From: Eledone cirrhosa
Taxonomy: Eukaryota
NCBI GenBank assembly: GCA_964016885.1
Contig: OZ024743.1
Span: 153,326,001-153,390,000 of the forward strand
Length of the DNA: 64,000 nucleotides
Reading direction: 5' to 3'
The translations under genes were made by a program, and so were the position numbers. Of this stretch, positions 3,075 through 51,562 are shown piece after piece. The notes under the pieces were generated by a model. It was not told the DNA's origin, did not search any database, and was given only the letters and a program-made list of their open reading frames with translations. The first letter of the stretch is position 1, and every line of letters starts with the position of its first letter.

Positions 3075-3710
3075 GTTGAACAGAACCATGACTCATCACC
3101 AATGACGATTCTCCTCAGCAAGTCTGGTTCTGTTTCAAGATGCTCAAGGATGTCCAGACACACCTGCATGCACCGCTCCTTCTTGTCATTGCTCAGTAGC
3201 GTTAGCACCATCTTCGTGCAGATCTTCTGCAAGCAGAAGTCTTTGGTGATAATCTTCTAAATGCTGTCATGGTTCCTGCCCAGCTCACTTGCAATCAGTC
3301 AAACAATCAGCCAATGATTGCCATGCACCATCTTCTACACATGCTAAACATTGACCTCAGTCTTGCTCATTGAAACCCTTCAGGTCCTGGGGTTGTCTTC
3401 TACTTTTTTGTCACTCAAAAACCTATGAGTGTACAGTTGCTGCAGTATTCCAAGTTCTTCTGATGGAGTTTTCCGCAGCTGGACTAGTAATTTCTGGTTC
3501 ATTCATTGGTCTGTGCCCATTACTCAATGGCCTAAAATTGAGGAGCTGTTAACAAAAGCATGAGAAACGTATAATGGCTACAGAGAGCTGTGATTGCAGT
3601 TATGTACTCCCCAGATATGATATCACACAGTTATGCAACTCACTAATCCCTACCCCACTCATAGCTCACACAGAAAACTATGTCCTGTTACTTTTTTGAC
3701 ACACCTCGCA
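3075..3710 (-). mobile_element. Truncated mariner (Tc1/mariner) transposon remnant
   Basis: ORF 3014-3232 KICTKMVLTLLSNDKKERCMQVC...RRIVIGDESWF resembles the mariner WVPR/TGDE region; TIR-like end tgcgaggtgtgtcaaaaaagtaac at ~3687-3710 next to TA. Confidence 0.8.
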
Positions 3711-6434: not shown

Positions 6435-6761
6435 AGGTACATGGCTTAGTGGTTAGAGCATTTGCCTTGCAATCGAAAGGTTGTGAGTTCAATTCTCAGA
6501 CAGGGTGATGTGTTGTTTCCTTGAGCAAGACACTTTATTTCACATTGCTCCAGTTTATTCAGCTGTAGAAATGAGATGATAGGGCCTGGGGTCCCTATCA
6601 TCCCACTGCAAAGTGGTTGTGGAGGTGCCACGGCAAAAAAAGCACCCAGCACTCACTGTAAATGAGGTTGGTGTTAGGAAGGGCATCCATCTGTAGAAAT
6701 CAAGCCAGAATCAGTTCCCGTCCCACCCTTGCAAGCAGGGAAAAAGCGGACGTAAAATGAA

Positions 6762-12576: not shown

Positions 12577-15500
12577 TTAAATGTATATAGTTTTTGACAA
12601 TTTACTTGGCCATTTTACTGTTCTGCCACTACGTGTGACATAAGGTTGTGTGGTATGTGCTGTTTGCGGTGGAGGTGAAGGTGTTGGTTTACGAGTGAAT
12701 GTACGAGGTATGTCAGGCCATGTAATGAGACTTTCAGAGAAAGCCCTCTTTGCTCTGTCAATGGATATTGTCTCTTTTCGACCATTGACAGCCACTGTGA
12801 AATGTGTTGGGTGTGCGAAAGCACACGAAAAGATCCATTATAGGGTGACATAAGCGGTCCCTTGACGGAATCATTCCGTATAAAAATGTGTGTCCACGTA
12901 GAGATGTCCGATGGAACAGCAGAAGAAATAGACTGGTCACGAGGGTTCATTGGTGGAAGATCCGAGAAGTAAGAACGAATCCTGGTGATATATGATGTTG
13001 GATCAAGATGCGATGAATGAACCGGTGCTAGCATTTGACCGGGAAGAGTCGAGGTGGTACCGTAAATAAGTTCAGCTGAGGAGAAACCCAAATCTATTTT
13101 AAAGGCAGAACGATAACCAAGAAGCACGATTGGCAAAAGTTGGGCCAACGTTGCGGATCAGGAGTAGCGCAGAGTGCAGCGTTCAACTGTCTGTGAAACC
13201 TCTCCACCATTCCATTGGAGGCTGGGTGATAGCTGGTCGTATGAATGTGATGAACACCCAAAAGTCGTGATATTTCACAAAATAAGGATGCCTCAAACTG
13301 GCGTCCTCGAACTGACGTCCTCGATCCGTGGTTATTTTAGAAGGAACACCAAAGCGAGCAATCCAATTGGAAATGAAAGCTCGAGCAAGGGACTCTTCTG
13401 TTATGTCCACTAGGGGTATGGCTTCAGGCCACCGAGAGAAACGATCTATACAGGTCAATATATATGTGAACCCACGACTAACGGGCCATGGACCAACAAT
13501 ATCCATGTAAATGTGACGGAAACGAGCGTCCGGCGGGCTGAATTTACCAAGAGGAGCGCGAACATGCCGATGAAACTTGGAGCACTGACACTGCAAACAA
13601 GAACGTGCCCAACCGGTGATTAAACAACGCATGTTAGGCCAGAAAAATCGGGCCGTGATGAGCTTCACCATGGCAGCTATGCCGAGATGCGACAAAGAAT
13701 GAAGTGCATCAAAAATGGTACGATGACAATCTGGAACAAGTGGTCCGGGTGAGCCAATAGAAATGTCGCAAAGAATTTTCTCTTCAGCAGACAGAAGAGG
13801 TAAATATTCAAATTTACAGCAGGAAAACTGGGTAGAAGAAGTATCCAGATAATCCAAAGAAGGTTGGTCAGTCGCAATGGCAACCAAATCAATATGTGCA
13901 GGAGACACAAGGGAGCACACAGGGAGTTGAGACAGTGCGTCCGCGGGTACGTTGGCAGCTCCAGCTACATGACGAATGTCACTGGTGTACTGGGAGATGA
14001 AATCCAAATATCGCTATGCCCTCGGAGAGTATCTGTCTGACTTGGTTTGAAGAGCGAATGTGAGTGGTTTATGGTCTGTGAATACCGTGAACTCCCGACC
14101 TTCAAGAAGATGGTGGAAGTGTCTCACAGCAAGATGAACTGCTAAAAGCTCTCTGTCAAAAGTACTGTAACGTTGCTCTGCTGGTTTTAGTTGGCTTGAG
14201 AAAAACGCCAGTGGTTGAAACTGGTGGTTGATTGTATGTTGCAAGACTGCTCCGACAGCATGGTCGGATGCATCGATAGTTAAGGATAGCCTCGCGTTCG
14301 CAAAAGGATGAGCCAGAAAGGAAACTTTAGCTATTTCAGTCTTGACGGATTCAAAAGATTGCAAAGCATCGGCAGAAAGTGAAATGGGAGCATCTTTCTT
14401 TTTCGCGGCCTTTAAAAACTATGTCAAGGGAAACAACTTGTCCGCACAGTTAGAAATGAAACGACGATAAAAGTTTATTAATCCTAAGAAATGACGTAAC
14501 TGTCTCAATGAGGTGGGGGGTGCGATTCGCTGAATCACTTCCACCTTAGATGGCAGAGGGCGAATGCCTTCTGAATCTATCAGATGTCCTAGGAATTCCA
14601 GTGAAGCTGTACCAAACACATTTAGCTGGGTTGATTCTGACCTGGTATGATTGAAGACGTTGAAATAACTGAGATAGATGTTGCTCTATGATGTTGATGA
14701 TGTTCAGCTGTGTCGCTGGCTATTAGAAGGTCATCCACATAAGCAAACACGAAATCCAATCCACGCATGACTTCATCGATAAAACGTTGGAACGTGCTAG
14801 AGGCATTCCGCAAGCCAAAAGGCATGGACAAAAATTCAAACGAACCAAAGGGGGCGGTCACAGCTGTTTTTGGTATGTAATTCTGGATTCATGGGTATTT
14901 GATGGTAAGCCCGTACCAGATCTATTTTAGAAAATATTGTGCATCCGCGTAGAACGGATGAGAAATCCTGTAAATTTGGTAAAGGATAACGATCCGGTGT
15001 AGTGGTGGCATTAAGTCTTCGGTAATCTCCTACCGGTCTAAAATCCGCATCACCCTTTCGAGCCAAGTGCAGTGGAGATGCCCATGGGCTGGTGGACGGT
15101 CGTATAAGACCGAGCTGGAGCATGTGCTCGAACTCGTTTCGTGCTTTATAGTCTATCCGGAGACAACCTCCGTGGACGAGAGAAAACAGGAGGACCAGTC
15201 GTTGTAACGAAGTGTTGAGTCGAGTGGACTGCCTGGGTAGGTTTAAATGAAATATCCGTTAACTCTGGAAACGAAGTAAGGAGTGCATGAAACTGGTTTC
15301 CAGCAGCAGCCACAAAAAACGAGTAGACGTATATAAGGATGTGGTACTATCCACAAGTTTTGGTTACTGACATCTACCAAAAGTGAATAGTGCTGTAAGA
15401 AATCCGCACCGCGAATCGGATGAAGTAGGTCGGCAATGACAAAAATCCATTTAAAATCTCGACGCAAAACTAGGTCCAGTGATAAACATATCTGTCCATA

Positions 15501-16520
15501 GGTTTTTATAGGAGACTGGTTTACTGCATACAAAGAAATGCCGGAGAGAGTTGGCTTGGTAGAGTTGAACCGTAAGGCCCAAATACTGCAACTTGATCCT
15601 GTGTCGACCATGAATGATTTGTTTGAAACTCGGTCTCTGATGAAGAAAGCACGATAAGGTGAATTGTTAAGGGCCTGCCATGCTCATACTCTCCAAAAGT
15701 AGTTTTTTCGATGCCCCAAAAGAGCAGGGCTTGATACAATGTTGTGCCTTATCACTGAAAGGCCCATGGTACCAACACAATGAAGAACTGTTGGCGGTGG
15801 AGTTGTTACGTCCACGAGAAGGAAAATACTGAGTTTGTGAACTCCGGCTATATGGCGCTCGATCACGACACAGTTTAGCTACTTGACGCGTTAACTCGTC
15901 AATAGCTTTCAACATGGCTTCCTCACTAGGCTGTTCTTTTTTAAATTAGAAGAGGCAATGACCGAATCAGCCGAGGTAGGTTTCCTAGAAAACTCCATAA
16001 TTCTGTCCGCAGAGGCAGCAATTTGTTCTATCGAACTGGTGTCAACCGTATTCGCCAATATGGTTTGCACATTGGTTGGCAAACGGGAGAAGAATAACTT
16101 TTTTACGAAGGAACTGTCTTCGGGCGCAGCATCACTGAGTTCACGGATACGCCGTAAAAACTCTGTAGGAGTTCTGTCCCCCAGATTTTCATCCTCTAAA
16201 AAGGAACGAAATCTACTCTCAGACTACCTACTGTTCCTACGCAGTACCTCTGTCTTCAGAGACTCGTAGGAAACGCCTTGTGGAGGGTCCGTGATTTTGT
16301 CTTTTACTGTAATTGCTAGCGAAGCGGGAATTCCACTGTTTAGCACGTTTAATTTTTGCTGTTTTTCCTGGACTCCGTTGACCGCAAAATACGCATCGAG
16401 CTGGGCGAACCACAATTTGGCATCGCCAGAATACGCTGGTAACGATGTGTTGCTCATTATTGTGACACGGTGGATGCTCATAGACAAAATTTGGTCGAGA
16501 GAGATGATTTTCTTTTTCAA
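12577..16520 (-). pseudogene. Fragmented gag-pol of the Gypsy element
   Basis: ORF pieces 16224-16520, 15667-15915, 15243-15611, 14836-15123, 14622-14861, 14419-14619, 14014-14364, 13183-14007, 12615-13148, 12577-12795. Confidence 0.93.
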
Positions 16521-18596: not shown

Positions 18597-18915
18597 CTTC
18601 TTCTTCGCCCACTTATTTCCAGTTAGTCTGTCAGAAGTAAACATCTCTAACTGATCCAGCTGGATCCCAAAGTATGACCAGCCAAGCTCATAGATGTTAT
18701 TCAACTATCTTGCTTGGGGTCTACCTCTGGGTCTCTTGCTGGTTGGTTTTGCCGGTAAAATCTGTCCAGCGATTCTTTCCTGAGACATTCTAACCACATG
18801 TCCATAGTATCAGAATTTTGAACTCTCAATCCGGAGATGTAGTGGCTCTACCAGGAGTGACTCTTTGATCTCTGAGCTATGCCCTTTATCAAGTAACGTT
18901 ACTCCAAAGACCCTT
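18597..18915 (-). mobile_element. RTE-clade LINE 3' end with (AAG)n tail
   Basis: Minus translation ...YGHVVRMSQERIAGQIL...KRPRGRP... Confidence 0.75.
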
Positions 18916-18992
18916 ATTTTATATCAGCCTCGCTTTCATTTGTTTTAGGTGTTGTTTTGAAATCCATATCTCACTTCCTCTTCAAATAAAAT

Positions 18993-19512
18993 TTCATTCT
19001 GATGAACGATTTCCGACGTCTGTGTCGAGCTCATCTGTGTCGAACTCATCTTGTGGAGCTCCTCTGTGACGAGCTCGTCTGTGTCGAGCTCATCTGTGTC
19101 GAGCTCATCTGTGTCGAGCTCATCTGTGTCGAGCTCATCTGTGACGAGCTCATCTGTGTCGAGCTCATCTGTGTTGAGCTCATCTGTGTCGAGCTCATCT
19201 CTGTAGAGCTCATCTGTGTCCAGCTCGTCTGTGTTGAGCACATCTGTGTCGAGCTCATCTGTGTCAAGCTCATCTGTGTCCAGCTCATTTGTGTCCAGCT
19301 CATCTGTGTTGAGCTCATCTGGGAAGAGCTCATCTGTGTCAAGCTCATCTGTGACGAGCTCATCTGTGACGAGCTCATCTGTGACGAGCTCATCTGTGAC
19401 GAGCTCATCTGTGTCGAATCCATCTGTGTCAAGCTCATCTGTATCAAGCTCGTCTGTGTCGAAATCATCTGTGACGAGCTCGTCTATATTCGTGAAACCT
19501 TTGGTAAATGGG
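18993..19512 (+). ncRNA. Hammerhead core enclosing a minisatellite in stem II
   Basis: ttcatt CTGATGA acga [array] tcgt GAAA cc-ttt-gg TA aatggg; flanks homologous to 34834-35005. Confidence 0.65.
19015..19485. repeat. 15-bp minisatellite (GAGCTCATCTGTGTC)n, about 31 units
   Basis: Direct reading; each unit is a near-palindromic 12-mer plus TGT. Confidence 0.98.
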
Positions 19513-19621
19513 ATAATTGTCTTATGTTGTTTATTACATAAGTAAATACCTCTGTAGCCTACATAGAGCACTAGCCTTTCCTTTACCTTTCCTACGGAAA
19601 CACTTAATATATATGCGTATA

Positions 19622-19797
19622 GGCGCCACAGAAGAAAAGCACCCAGCACTCACTGTAAATGTGGTTGGTGTTAGGAAAGGCATCCAGCTGTAGAAATCAA
19701 GCCAGAATCAGTTCCCGTATGAGCAAGACATGGTCAGCCGACCGGCTACTGTCCACAGCAGGACAAACTGTCTAACCCATGCCAGCGTGGAAGATGA

Positions 19798-22712: not shown

Positions 22713-23769
22713 AACAAAGTCAATCTGTGAACGCAGAAGTAAATATTTCAAAAAACGTTGCAACCGGAGGAAGACAGGAGGACGATACTTTGGTTCGAGG
22801 AAATGGTCCCTGGCAAAGAAGGGGAAAAAACGAATATAATACGTCCTTATTTGGAGCGGTGAAAAACAATTAGACGCAAAGACAAAACCACGTTTATGGT
22901 ATAAAGGAAGTCGTAGACTAATATTCTATTAGGTGGTTCATAGAGACGTTCTCTGGCAATGAACGGAAAAAACGAAGATAATACGTCATATGTGGAGCGA
23001 GCAGAACAATTGCACGCACAGACAAAACCACGTAAATGGTATAACTGAAGTCGTAGACTAACATTCTAACTAGGAAACCGAATGATTCCCGGCTTCAGAG
23101 TTAAGAATAAAGTAAATAAAATACAGAGGTAATTTAAATTAAATAAATACATACACTCATCCATACACATACATACACAAGCATACGCGAAAACACTCGC
23201 CATATATATACAAATACACGCACGTACACCCCACAAAGAAAAAACCCGCACGCACATACAGAACCCACGCAACGCCTGTACCCGTATGCATACGAATGTA
23301 TACACCAAATACACATAAAAATATATATAAAATATATATATATATGTGTGTGTGTGTGCGTGTATACATATAATTAAATAAACGTATATAAATAAATCCG
23401 TATATATCAAGCGCACACACATACCTACATGTAAATACACATATGTTCGGAGACGTACGTCAACCAAAACACAAAGTACACATCTACACACACCCTACAT
23501 ACGTACGAACCCGCATACTCACACAGACGCAAAACTCACGTATACACATAACCAAAAGCATATGTCCCAGAATATATAATATATACGCCATAACATATAA
23601 AATCAAATATACGTACGAGAAAGTATACGTACCTTCACAAAACATACAGGTAATATATACTTACCTATACAAATAAGTAATGGTATAAACATAACATATA
23701 CTTAGCTACCACATCAAGACGTAAAGTATCCGCGTATAGTTCGTACTATCCGTTAGGGTATAATGTGGG

Positions 23770-25750
23770 GCCGTAATACAGGAAAGTTTTGTGCAATTTA
23801 TGTTTACAAGCCGAAATGGCCTCAGATTTTTTGTTTAAGATGTGGTCTTTGGCGTAGAGTATTTCCAGGGCCTCAGCGGCGCAGAGGTCACATGGTCTTT
23901 TATTTCCGTTATACTATCTAGCCCTAGCTAGGATCTCCCAGTGTAACTTATATTGGGTGTGGTTGTCTTTTAGACTCCAGATATAAGCTGAAAGTGACGC
24001 CATATTCCTTCTTAAAGTGTTACAAAAAGAATAGGTATGCATCTAAAGACGCTATTGAATCTATTGGCTGTTAACCCTATGTAGGCCCTACGGGACATGA
24101 GTGTTTCAACCTTACATTTGTAGACAACGTTACTACAGAGGCATATCCCGGATATGGGACAGTCAACCCGATTCCTACAATTACAGTTAGGACTAACTAC
24201 AGGGTTGCACGTGTTCGTACAGCTAGGTAGTTTAGCTAAATTTGGAGCTGTGATGTTATGTGCAAGTTTAGGAGTCGTAGAGTAAGACATTTTAATAGTA
24301 TTTCTATTAAAAATGTTACTATATTTATGTTGTGGGGGAAAATGCTTCATAATAAGGGAGAGAAAGATCTTAGCTAATGGTGTAGCCACCTCCATATTAT
24401 ATGGTGGGTTATACCATATAATGCGTCGGGATCTATTTCTTCTAGGTCTATTCTCGTACTCTGTATATGCTACTTTATCGACAAATCCACTCCGAGCAAG
24501 AGCTTCATTGTAATATGTGGAATGGTCGTTGAAAATATGCTCATTAGTAGATAGACGGGAAAGCCTCAAAGAAACGTTTCTTACCAGGTTCTTGGTTATG
24601 CTGGCAGGATGTTTAGAATGCTTACTCATGTAACCAAGCGTATCATTCGGGGTTTTTTCCGGGTAATGCAAGCCATTCGATAAATTGAGGATAACGTCGA
24701 AGTAATTAACGACCGAGTGGTTGGCCTCCACCTGTATGGAGAGGTTGAAGCCTTTAAAGAAGGCTGTGAGTTCTTTTCTGAACCTGTCGCAAGCACGTGG
24801 GCCGCACATAGTTATGGTCAAAAGACCATCTTCACGGTACAAACCACCGCCCACGTTGGGGAATTCTTCCTTGATAGAGAAAAGAAGGAAAAAGGCCGAT
24901 AAGTTCAGTAATCTCCGCAGAATCGCTGGTGCCCATACTCACGTCGAATGGAGTACTATTATATTTGTTTATCCAAATAGAGTCGTCGAAATTAATCACC
25001 GACTTACGGGCATTGAGGATGACATCAACTTCGAAATCCTTAACCAATGTGAGTGTTTTAGCGAAATTGATAGCTCTAAGGAGAAGTGGTAAAGTGATGG
25101 AGGAGTAGTAATTATTGATGTCGAATTGGATAAAACGGCAATGTTCCTTGTTGCATATGCCGTTGAACCAATCAATCACCGTGAAAGAATTGTTCCACAG
25201 TGAAAGAGGGGCCAAACTTCTTATTTCAGGTATAATTCTATCAAGAATCCTTTTACTAAGTCTACCTAGATCGGACTTCGTAGGGTTAATAAGCCGAATA
25301 GAGGGGTTGTTCGGAAATTTGGATTTGTGATCCTTCAGGGTAAAGTGGGTAGAAATAGGGTCCAGGGGTTCAGTCCGGTCCAGGATGTTGCGATCAGAGG
25401 TAATTTTAAACCCAGCATCTTTGATTTCATTAATGACGCTCCGATTAGTTTTACGGTAATCCTTAGTTACAGCATTATGTAGCAGTTGATGGTAAGTACT
25501 GCACTCCACTTGATATAGATTGTCAGTTTTGTCGGAATGGACGTGCACGGCATTAGATTCCTTAATAGAACGAATTCTATTCTTCAGGTCCTGCTGGAAG
25601 GAATTGCTCCTATTCCGAAATTTGATACTCCGTATGAGTTCCAAGACATCATTTTCGAAGGGTAGCAAAGCTGGGTTTCTCGGATGGCTATTATAGGTTT
25701 TAAACCCAAATTAATCCTGTTTGTTCTCTGCTTTTCCTTGATTATCAAAA
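23770..25750 (-). pseudogene. PLE RT-endonuclease ORF with frameshifts and a stop; resembles the Hydra clade
   Basis: SDKTDNLY, LKDHK, RLINP, QFDINNYY, GLYREDGL, CNC..CPISGIC, VVYK..YIG, then W.IL...CDLC..E...LNKKSE..ACKH in the unannotated downstream frame. Confidence 0.9.
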
Positions 25751-26568
25751 TAAAAGGCACACATGAGTTTTGCGTCTGTGTGAGTATGGGGGTTCGTATG
25801 TATGTAGGGTGTGTGTATATGTCTACTTTGTGTTTTGGTTGACGTTCGTACATGTAGGTATGTTTGTGCGCTTGTTATATACGTATTTATTTACTCATAT
25901 ACGTTTATTTAATTATATGTATACACGCACACATACACATATATATATTTTTTTTATATATATTTTTCTGTGTATTTGGTGTATACATTCGTATGCGTGC
26001 GGGTACAGGTGTTGCGTGGGTTCTGTATGTGCTTGCGGTCTTTTTTTGTTTTTTTTTCTGTGCACATGCGTGTATTTGTATACATATGGCGAGTGTTTTC
26101 GCGTATGCTTGTGTATGTACGTATATAGATGCGTGTATGTATTTATTTAATTTAAATTACCTCTGTATTTTATTTACTTTATTCTTAACTCTGAAGCCGA
26201 GAATCATTCGGTTTCCTAGTTAGAATTTTAGTCTACGACTTCAGTTATACCATTTACGTGGTTTTGTCTTTGCGTGCAATTGTTCTCCCTGGTCCACATA
26301 TGACGTATTATCTTCGTTTTTTCCGTTCATTGCCAGAGAACGTCTCTATGAACTACCTAACAGATATTAGTCTACGACTTCTTTTATACCATAAACGTGG
26401 TTTTGTCTTTGCGTGTAATAGTTTTTCACCGCTCCAATTAATGACGTATTATATTCGTTTTTTCCCGTTCTTTGCCAGGGAACGTTCCTACGAACAAAAG
26501 TATCGTCTTCCTGTTTTATTCCGGTTGCAACATTTTTTGAAATATTTACTTCTGAGATTGACTTGGTT

Positions 26569-26619
26569 AGTTTCAGAAGATCCCATTAAGGGTGAAAGCA
26601 GCGATTCTTTGCTTAAACT
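26569..26619 (+). ncRNA. Hammerhead-like motif with CAGAAGA (U4A) core, inverted pseudo-LTR copy
   Basis: Same architecture as 22662-22712. Confidence 0.7.
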
Positions 26620-26731
26620 TTAATCTGTTATTTTAATAAATATTTGCTCTACGGTTCTTATATATTTGATATATATTTATCCTTATCGAGCCCTCTTTGG
26701 ATTTTAGTCTTCAAATTTATTATTATTACTA

Positions 26732-34833: not shown

Positions 34834-34902
34834 TTCCTTTGATGAACAGGCTGGATGTTTCTGTAAGAATCATCTAGTTTCTTGAAACCTTTAGTAATGG
34901 AA
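34834..34902 (+). ncRNA. Decayed hammerhead; array-free homologue of 18993-19512
   Basis: ttcct TTGATGA acaggctggatg...catctagtttctt GAAA ccttta GTA atggaa; the following ~100 nt align with 19513-19607. Confidence 0.55.
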
Positions 34903-36449
34903 TAATTATATTGTGTTGTTTATTATGTAATTAAATGTAATTAAATAGCTCTGTACAACACATAGAGCACTCTTCTTTCCTTTACCTTGTCTATGGAAAT
35001 ACTTAACAAACACACACATATATACAGTTTCTTACAACATAGATATGATGGTTCAGCAATATAATTTTCGGCACATATATATACCAGGTAATGAAATATT
35101 CACATATTTTGCTCTGCTTTCTGTGTCTACAGCAATCAATTGTAGCCTGAGGTCCTTAATCAGGAAGTGGATTGAAAAAGCACACTTACTGATGATGCTT
35201 TCTGGTGAACTAATTAAGGTTGATATGTATCTAACATATTTGTTGTTGAGGTTGGCATCTAATTTTTTTCTGTTATTTTTTTATTTCTTTTTACACAACT
35301 GTTGATATTGCTGCAAATGGTAATGGTAGGAAAACATCATTGGTGCTCACCAAAATTATGGTTGAATATGAAAATTGCAATAATAGCCTTAAGAGCAGAC
35401 ACATAATTTTTACATAACAGGCTCAACATTAGAAACTTTAATGTTTTGTACTTATTTCCCAGATGAACCAACAAAGAAGTCCCTACATCATTGCTTAGCT
35501 TGCTAGGAAAGTTATCAAATCTTCCTCAAATTACATTAAACCATTTTAAAAAAGATACTTTGTATAACATGAACATTGGTTCCATGGGTATAGGAATAAG
35601 ATGTGATGCTTATAGTTGGAATGCTTTTATCATAAATATAATTAATCAGGGCTTGCCTTTGACCAGCAACAACAAGATGTCTTGATCTGCTAAAAATAAT
35701 AACCAACATTCCTCAAATCATAATTTAGATGGTCATGACTGGAATGCCTTTTATCATATGCTTGCTAAATAAGAGTTGGCTGGGGGCTAAACCACAATAA
35801 TAACTCACCTACCAGACAGACATAACATGATGGACTATGATAACAAATGAAGAGCTAAAGAACTAAGCAAAAAAAGGAAGATGACAAGAAAATAGGATAA
35901 AGAAAGTGATGTCATAAGCATTGTAGCTGTCAAGTGAAAGGTTTGGCTTAATAACATCTCTTAATAAATAATACTTCTCAATCTGGTGCTTTGTTGATAT
36001 TAAAAAGAAAAAGTCTTGGTCATAGTAACAAACCCAGGAGACAGCATTGACATCAGGATGATTAATGATATGATATAGCGGAATATTTATGTCTGTGCTT
36101 GCAGAGATTGGAATTAATGCCTAAATGACTCCTCTACTCCACAGAGATACTTTTGTTAAAATTGATTTTATGAAAAAATAAAAATGAAAATAAAAATATG
36201 AAAAAAAAAAGATAGAGAGTCAAAAAGAATAAAAAAGTAGTATAAACTTTACTGAAAATGATGATGGTGTGCAGAATTTGCTGCAGGCAAATATCTTTCA
36301 GACTGTTATAGTAAAGTAAAGAAAGGCACCCACGAGTGGAGTCCAAGTACTTGACACTGTTACCAGAAATCTAGATGAAATATTAGCTAAAATTATGCAT
36401 AAAATACTATAGCTATTTCATCTATTTATTTATATATTTTCTGATCCTC

Positions 36450-36790
36450 ATCATCATCACCTCCGTTTAATGAGCATCTTTCCATGCTAGTATGGGTTAG
36501 ATGGGTTTGTCTCATTTGAGGCAAGTTTGGTTGGGTGACCACATCTTTCTTGTATAGAACCGATTTTGGCCTAGTTTCTACAGCTGGATGCTCTTCCTAG
36601 TACCAACCTCATTTACAGTGAGTGCTGGGTGCTTTTTGCTGTGACACCTACATGACCACTTTACAATATGTACTGGGTACTTTTTGCTGTGACACATACA
36701 CGACCACTTTACAATGTGGACTTGGGACTTTTTGCCGTGACACCTACATGACCACTTTACAGTGTGCCCTGGCATTTTTTTGTTGTGCTG
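36450..36790 (-). mobile_element. SINE B-type 3' portion with an internal 48-bp tandem repeat (~3.5 units, 36622-36790)
   Basis: ttttgc(t/c)gtgacac recurs at ~36633, 36681 and 36729; (cat)n tail. Confidence 0.7.
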
Positions 36791-51216: not shown

Positions 51217-51562
51217 ATCATCATCATCATCATCATCATTTTACGTCCACTTTTCCCTGCTTGCAAGGGTGGGACGGGAACTGATTCTGGCTTGATTTCT
51301 ACAGCTGGATGCCCTTCCTAACACCAACCTCATTTACAGTGAGTGCTGGGTGCTTTTTTTCTGTGGCACCTCCACAACCACTTTGCAGTGGAATGATAGG
51401 GACCCCAGTCCCTATCACCTCATTTCTACAGCTGAGTAAACTGGAGCAATGTGAAATAAAGTGTCTTGCTCAAGGAAACAACACATCACTCGGTCTGAGA
51501 ATTGAACTCACAACCTTTCGATTGCAGGGCCGATGCTCTAACCACTAAGCCATGTGCCTCCA
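51217..51562 (-). mobile_element. tRNA-derived SINE family B
   Basis: Reverse-complement close copy of 6435-6797. Confidence 0.88.

Follow-up and report, generated by a model that had tools for sequence, protein, structure and literature searches.

The minisatellite in this stretch of Eledone cirrhosa DNA lies inside stem II of a hammerhead ribozyme motif, and the locus as a whole represents what is left of a Hydra-clade Penelope-like retrotransposon, namely its 3' end, truncated on the 5' side. Very probably, the native stem II segment was multiplied 31-fold at this one locus, likely after the element had inserted, through mispairing of two 7-nt repeats and duplication at the DNA level. Hammerheads in the pseudo-LTRs of Penelope-like elements and minisatellites seeded by direct repeats within transposons are both already known, and the array at this one locus is a well-documented accident that shows no sign of function. 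In a literature search restricted to main texts, no published case of a hammerhead stem with a tandem array in it came to light. In what follows, the window is the whole 64-kb stretch of DNA that was analyzed, and comparisons beyond it were made with the 3.0-Gb genome assembly, in which the window occupies G000:C4:153326001-153390000.

A complete type I hammerhead motif surrounds the 31-unit array on the plus strand (Table 1), with CUGANGA, GAAA and NUH following one another in order and with stems I, II and III all present. When stem II was permitted to reach 600 nt, a type I descriptor matched the window only once, at the array locus, where stem II has 488 nt, stem III has 2 bp and a 3-nt loop, and stem I has eight pairs. 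The same descriptor gave any match in only one of 100 block-shuffled windows. TRF reports 31.2 copies of period 15 at 86% matches across 19019-19485, and the units carry 38 differences from the array majority over 465 positions. The preliminary description had placed a minisatellite of about 470 bp inside stem II, bracketed by CTGATGA-ACGA on one side and TCGT-GAAA on the other, with a paired stem I, and sequence and descriptor bear out this layout.

Several details of the locus bear on how it should be read. Only one core is present, and the repeated 15-nt unit has none. The 5' arm of stem II differs from the family form by a single substitution (CCGACG for CAGACG). A 139-nt short-read contig from run X1 matches 19001-19066 without differences and continues into the next letters of the array; this agreement speaks against an assembly error only, and X1 may be the assembly's own sample. 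None of the short-read contigs spans from the flank to the array. Rfam matched no hammerhead family either in the window or in a native copy of the family (L126), an outcome for which the long stem II is a likely cause.

Table 1. Features of the array-bearing locus and of its relative in the same window.
Feature	Positions	Strand	Remarks
Remnant of element 3' UTR / pseudo-LTR, T-rich, 5'-truncated at about 18914	18914-18990	+	Up to 19000, collinear with family copy L012 for 87 nt at 93%
Hammerhead stem I, 5' strand	18991-18998	+	8 pairs with 19507-19514
Core CUGAUGA (C3-A9)	18999-19005	+	Sequence, descriptor match
Stem II, 5' arm	19006-19018	+	4-bp base ACGA (19006-19009), 3-nt internal loop, CCGACG
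5' CGTCTGT, 7-nt direct repeat proposed to seed duplication	19017-19023	+	Native copies have two CGTCTGT 15 nt apart
Minisatellite, native 15-nt stem II segment in 31 units	19019-19482	+	Unit 3 has 14 nt
3' copy of the direct repeat, as incomplete last unit	19481-19487	+	CGTCTAT here, CGTCTGT in the family
TCGT, 3' base of stem II	19490-19493	+	Sequence
Core GAAA	19494-19497	+	Sequence, descriptor match
CC-TTT-GG, 2-bp stem III with UUU loop	19498-19504	+	Sequence, descriptor match
TA of the GUA triplet	19505-19506	+	Predicted cleavage after 19506
Hammerhead stem I, 3' strand	19507-19514	+	G in place of the family's A at 19512
Rest of pseudo-LTR to the short end (about 19543), then 64-nt tail to the long end	19515-19607	+	TATATAT follows
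Older, decayed relative	34834-35006	+	38-nt stem II (34846-34883), (TA)n on the left

The identity of the element emerges from longer copies elsewhere in the genome. In L126, an inverted 3' piece is followed by a truncated ORF with YRDD, a long TA-rich 3' UTR, the family hammerhead, a tail and (TA)n. The same order is found in L125 and L128, where the hammerhead lies downstream of the RT-endonuclease ORF on the same strand. The T-rich stretch that precedes the hammerhead in the window is also present between ORF and hammerhead in L126, and short-read contigs of the family start near 18911. A search of the genome at the protein level yielded 139 scored matches; many of them have an open frame of 714 aa. 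These frames belong to a young sister subfamily arranged as hammerhead, ORF, 3' UTR and hammerhead, which shares an identical stem I with the studied family, has another, perfectly paired stem II, and has a tail that is 78% identical.

A structure model of the sister ORF has a mean pLDDT of 93.8, and its top nine fold matches are all telomerase RTs. SIVYE...YVG motifs were found as well, and Atlas neighbors carry GIY-YIG and RVT_1; searches of Pfam and of PDB by sequence and profile did not recognize the ORF. The sister protein (P0001) bears RWK, DKT, CxCX5C, CxxC-E and N-CxH. In the L125 and L126 ORFs, which are linked to the hammerhead type studied here, CxCX5C, CxxC-E and N-CxH are present though partly decayed, and the positions of RWK and DKT fall outside these truncated frames. 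The family therefore has what defines a Penelope-like element, namely an ORF that joins a telomerase-like RT to GIY-YIG, a pseudo-LTR hammerhead, tandem and inverted arrangement, and two 3' ends. Its placement in the Hydra clade rests on motifs (RWK, DKT, a CxCX5C linker, and CxxC and CxH around a conserved E and N) and on (TA)n targets; RWK, DKT, CxCX5C, CxxC-E and N-CxH are the marks given for this clade (Craig et al. 2021; PMC8557442).

Abundance and structure of the copies agree with this placement. The 3' part has 1742 candidate places in the 3.0-Gb genome, of which 40 were scored, and the best 30 are 93-100% identical to it. The hammerhead had previously been described as part of a mobile family, and this holds; the element, left unnamed at that time, can now be called a Hydra-clade Penelope-like retrotransposon. 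Copies are 5'-truncated, often have an inverted piece in front, and sit in (TA)n. Two classes of 3' end lie about 64 nt apart, with 51 of the 109 examined copies reaching the long end, 24 ending at the short one followed by TA, and 34 ending otherwise. Truncation, inverted pieces, (TA)n sites and two ends are all known for Penelope-like elements (PMC8557442), and the two ends have been tied to two RT start sites (PMC11167929). No target-site duplication that would fix the ends of the element was seen by eye.

As far as the portions of Craig et al. (2021; PMC8557442) drawn on here extend, the family shares with other Hydra-clade elements a C-terminal endonuclease ORF with RWK, DKT, CxCX5C, CxxC and CxH, a canonical pseudo-LTR hammerhead, (TA)n insertions, an inverted 5'-truncated piece and a tail. 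It differs from them in unit length (about 4.4 kb from hammerhead to hammerhead in L138 of the sister subfamily, as opposed to "generally <3 kb") and in tail length (about 64 nt versus 30-40), and the studied copy, unlike theirs, consists of a 3' fragment whose stem II holds an array. The family may already figure in the supplementary lists of that paper.

Two further subfamilies deserve description in their own right. The young one (L135, L137-L139, L141 and L142; for example, L138:1236-5730 and G000:C28:46941500-46950000) contains many intact 714-aa ORFs in copies that are 97-100% identical and occur in both tandem and inverted arrangement. Some 500 nt past its stop codon, each unit has a second hammerhead-like motif, in which G occupies the cleavage position; to judge from this base, the second motif is probably non-cleaving, and it could act as a dimer partner. 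A third subfamily, on the minus strand of L143 at about 3260-3370, has a perfect 10-bp stem II whose 3' arm is common to the studied family. Among the three subfamilies the stem II sequences differ and yet each pairs, while core and stem I are constant. Within the family, stem I is paired in 89% of cells across 68 distinct copies; overall 91.7% of cells are paired, with no excess over shuffles. The case for the structure thus rests on the motif and on the comparison between subfamilies.

The repeat unit is native to the family. A pattern that sets the two core halves 25-50 nt apart has 342 exact matches; reversed as a control, it has none. Of the best 30 loci for the 3' part, none of the 29 other than the array locus has an array in the 200 nt upstream, and stem II, where these have one, contains a single 15-mer between two CGTCTGT. 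Stem II lengths were counted from 109 examined 3' halves, of which 29 were excluded for want of a 5' half within 120 nt. In 69 of the remaining 80 copies, stem II is 39 nt long with one unit, and two of the 80 lengths (16 and 68) are artefacts of inversion junctions; copies were de-duplicated by 300-nt context, so that some duplicates may remain in these counts. What lies between CTGATGA and GAAA in these copies is most often the single-unit stem II.

Searches with two-unit patterns place the array at this locus only. All nine exact matches fall within the array at 19019-19482, as do all 23 matches with up to three mismatches, and a degenerate pattern places 27 of its 29 matches there; this uniqueness holds for the 3.0-Gb assembly, and the patterns would pass over arrays whose units had diverged much further or that had collapsed in assembly. 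The two outside matches (L093 and L094) also belong to the family, and each has exactly one additional unit. Within each of them the two units are identical, and each pair has its own locus-specific variant, which makes the duplications independent. One of these copies has lost stem I to inversion and the other has a broken core. A reciprocal 15-nt deletion is seen in L127. In only four copies are the core motifs 34-64 nt apart, the extra lengths being 4, 7, 12 and 15 nt. Those of 12 and 7 nt are smaller stem II duplications at CGTC/CGTCT repeats (G000:C14:44248979-44249049 and G000:C23:7669446-7669511), and they suggest that the stem II hairpin is generally prone to slippage.

The older relative at 34.8 kb in the window had been regarded as a homologue of the array locus with a similar core and a short stem II. 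Homology is confirmed (19489-19607 against 34879-35006, 75% over 129 columns, E 7e-20), as is the length of stem II; the core, however, is not intact, since it reads TTGATGA with C3 changed to T at 34839, stem III has a C-A mismatch, and the 3' strand of stem I lacks one base at its start. Judged by these lesions, this copy reads as an older, broken relative rather than as the best empty allele.

Native copies contain CGTCTGT twice, 15 nt apart, an arrangement in which a 5-10-bp repeat recurs one period away, and minisatellites have been described to arise at direct repeats of 5-10 bp, mostly of 7 bp (Ahmed and Liang 2012; PMC3389668; Haber and Louis 1998 and Jurka and Gentles, as cited there). 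The pattern of variants among the units argues for duplication of the units themselves. Unit position 15 is A in 26 of the 31 units, against G in 57 of 69 native copies, and G also stands at this position in the array's 5' flank and in its last unit. A second variant, T7A, occurs in eight of the 31 units and in none of the 69 native copies. Under independent origin, P is 2e-20 for A15 and 3e-4 for T7A (corrected for 15 positions). Independent mutation cannot yield such counts, and thus mutated units must themselves have been duplicated. Neighboring units show only a weak tendency to have derived variants in common (lag 1, p 0.19; identical neighbors, p 0.035; a run of four T7A units, p 0.051). 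Divergence within the array is 5.9% at non-CpG positions, similar to that of the right flank (3/57), which puts the array at about the same age as the copy that contains it. Of the two origins considered earlier, expansion from stem II is upheld, in that the unit is native, single in family copies and marked by variants common to many units; insertion of the array is contradicted by the same native origin of the unit.

A plausible course of events can be outlined from these observations. The first duplication would have resulted from mispairing between the two CGTCTGT repeats at a single locus, and units would then have been duplicated stepwise at the DNA level until 31 were present. Slipped-strand mispairing or unequal exchange is the chemistry that might account both for the first step and for later growth. 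Growth probably came after insertion rather than during it, the intact core would be neutral, and the array-bearing copy, which lacks an ORF and has no intact hammerhead partner within the window, would be a passenger. Within the portions of Ahmed and Liang (2012; PMC3389668) considered here, transposon-derived minisatellites share with this locus a 7-bp direct repeat flanking the unit, an incomplete last unit, and confinement of the array to one locus where local duplication enlarged it. The present case differs in that the host is a Penelope-like element, the unit lies within a ribozyme stem, and loss, single, double and 31-fold states all occur in one genome.

Two other classifications of the locus were considered and rejected. 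Animal non-LTR retrozymes likewise combine Penelope-like terminal sequence, hammerheads and local tandem amplification, but, in the part of the report used here, they repeat the whole hammerhead-bearing unit (bioRxiv 10.64898/2026.07.22.740005), whereas here a coreless 15-nt piece is repeated within one hammerhead and the core is single. A coding repeat was also dismissed. Two frames cross the array (18945-19649 on the minus strand, 234 aa, and 18990-19541 on the plus strand, 183 aa), and the unit is stop-free in them; it comes from a non-coding stem.

The alternative that survives best, though it is improbable, is that the locus is a working discontinuous ribozyme, whose array folds up alone into a stem II of 488 nt and whose core, once the locus is transcribed, cuts at GUA. 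In its favor, the core bases, stem III and all eight stem I pairs are in place, stem II varies freely between the three subfamilies while core and stem I are retained, and a constrained fold exists with the array as a separate domain. Furthermore, there is precedent for cleavage across several hundred nucleotides in the hammerhead of Clec2 mRNA (Martick et al. 2008, as summarized in the review PMC6765202). An intact core is weak testimony to retained function, however, because among 30 copies selected on the 3' UTR alone, with the core disregarded, 21 also have one, so that no selection is needed to explain it. The earlier statement that the core stayed intact therefore stands for the bases themselves and not as a sign of function.

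Folding predictions also disfavor a working ribozyme. The hammerhead conformation lies 6.5 kcal/mol above the ensemble at the array locus, compared with 3.0, 3.3, 5.3 and 5.7 in four native copies, a modest penalty from a calculation that is imprecise for 550 nt. The predicted probability of pairing at the base of stem II is 0.04-0.05, compared with 0.38-0.99 in the native copies, and three substitutions (19014, 19486 and 19488) weaken the stem II arms. It had been suggested that the self-complementary GAGCTC units fold on their own and hold the core halves together. The units do pair mutually, but in the predictions they also take the stem II arms, and with the array a smaller fraction of molecules is predicted to adopt the hammerhead fold.

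Known requirements of related ribozymes add to these doubts. The 2-bp stem III is predicted to need a dimer partner; Penelope-like hammerheads with such a short stem III cleave poorly, as dimers (Cervera and De la Pena 2014; PMC4209133), and one Penelope-like hammerhead cleaved only with the protein of its element (PMC11167929). The copy itself, from about 18914 to 19607, has no ORF and no upstream pseudo-LTR, and the window contains just one further copy of the family, the broken one 15 kb away. Given the missing ORF, the want of an intact partner in the window, the 2-bp stem III and the lowered fold share, these models make it likely that the locus cleaves little or not at all. Where the sections of Cervera and De la Pena (2014; PMC4209133) used here allow comparison, the motif shares with Penelope-like type I hammerheads the type I order, a short, near-palindromic stem III, a stem II longer than usual and occurrence mostly as single motifs from truncated elements; it differs in having no G10.1-C11.1 pair (A-U or G-U here) and in a stem II of 39 nt in native copies and 488 nt at the array locus.

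A somewhat less likely variant of the functional reading is that the locus represents a natural discontinuous hammerhead with a VNTR as its stem II, which would cleave if transcribed together with a partner or the protein, with array length tuning cleavage between individuals and the first 15-nt gain perhaps owed to a slip of the RT. The halves are several hundred nucleotides apart here as in the Clec2 hammerhead, which, as presented in the consulted portion of the review (PMC6765202), lies in an mRNA 3' UTR and has demonstrated cleavage, whereas the present case is a transposon fragment with a tandem array and is known from its sequence only. If cleavage were shown, this would be a second natural hammerhead split by hundreds of bases.

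It is very unlikely that the array was made at once during insertion, by a telomerase-like RT that realigned the cDNA end on the direct repeat and repeatedly recopied a 15-nt template. The RT fold is indeed closest to telomerase, an alignment repeat and a short segment inside the hairpin would make up the template, and the similar divergence of array and right flank suits synthesis along with the copy; the identical unit pairs in L093 and L094 fit either route. What decides the matter is that recopying one template cannot propagate new variants such as A15 and T7A. On the strength of these shared variants, RT reiteration is dismissed as the source of the array in its entirety, and at most the first duplication would be RT-made.

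Least credible of all is the proposal that a ribozyme element carries and spreads a satellite, or that an independent satellite or MITE landed in stem II: a family as mobile and abundant as this one could in principle transport an expanded copy, but the two-unit patterns match only the array locus and two unrelated single duplications, they reveal no second hammerhead-bracketed array and no array copy with its own ends or target duplication anywhere in the 3.0 Gb (within the assembly and patterns used), just the four copies mentioned above have an enlarged spacing, the native unit means that nothing was inserted, and the array copy lacks both ORF and upstream pseudo-LTR.

The surroundings of the locus are rich in other repeats. 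To the left, a very high-copy repeat at about 18600-18915 is cut where the Penelope-like fragment begins, and contigs suggest an internal tandem structure within it at about 18755-18880. Immediately after the 3' end of the element, a SINE-like repeat occupies 19621-19796, with more copies at 6623-6721, 36475-36650 and 51274-51371. A frameshifted ORF of a more distant Hydra-type element lies on the minus strand at 23800-25758; it is 32-43% identical to P0001 and has DKT, CxCX5C, CxxC and CxH, and the descriptor scan of the window matched no canonical hammerhead near it. This ORF is flanked by a 140-nt two-copy repeat (22810-23068) and an apparently related inverted stretch (26195-26623), which may be the terminal repeats of that element. 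Broken LTR-retroelement-like pol fragments are found at 12615-15683 on the minus strand, with translated frames that we take to be protease, RT, RNase H and integrase.

There are a few implications of these findings for the element family and for the study of hammerheads more generally. Searches in which the length of stem II is capped pass over loci of this kind. A Hydra-clade family that is abundant and has young, intact ORFs is present in the Eledone cirrhosa genome. The array is not evidence for a new route of satellite spread. It belongs instead to a natural series for the birth of a minisatellite, in which one and the same 7-nt repeat has accompanied a 15-nt loss, the single state, two independent single-unit gains and expansion to 31 units, and this series permits a rough estimate of rate, with three gains among at least 342 copies, and probably well over a thousand.
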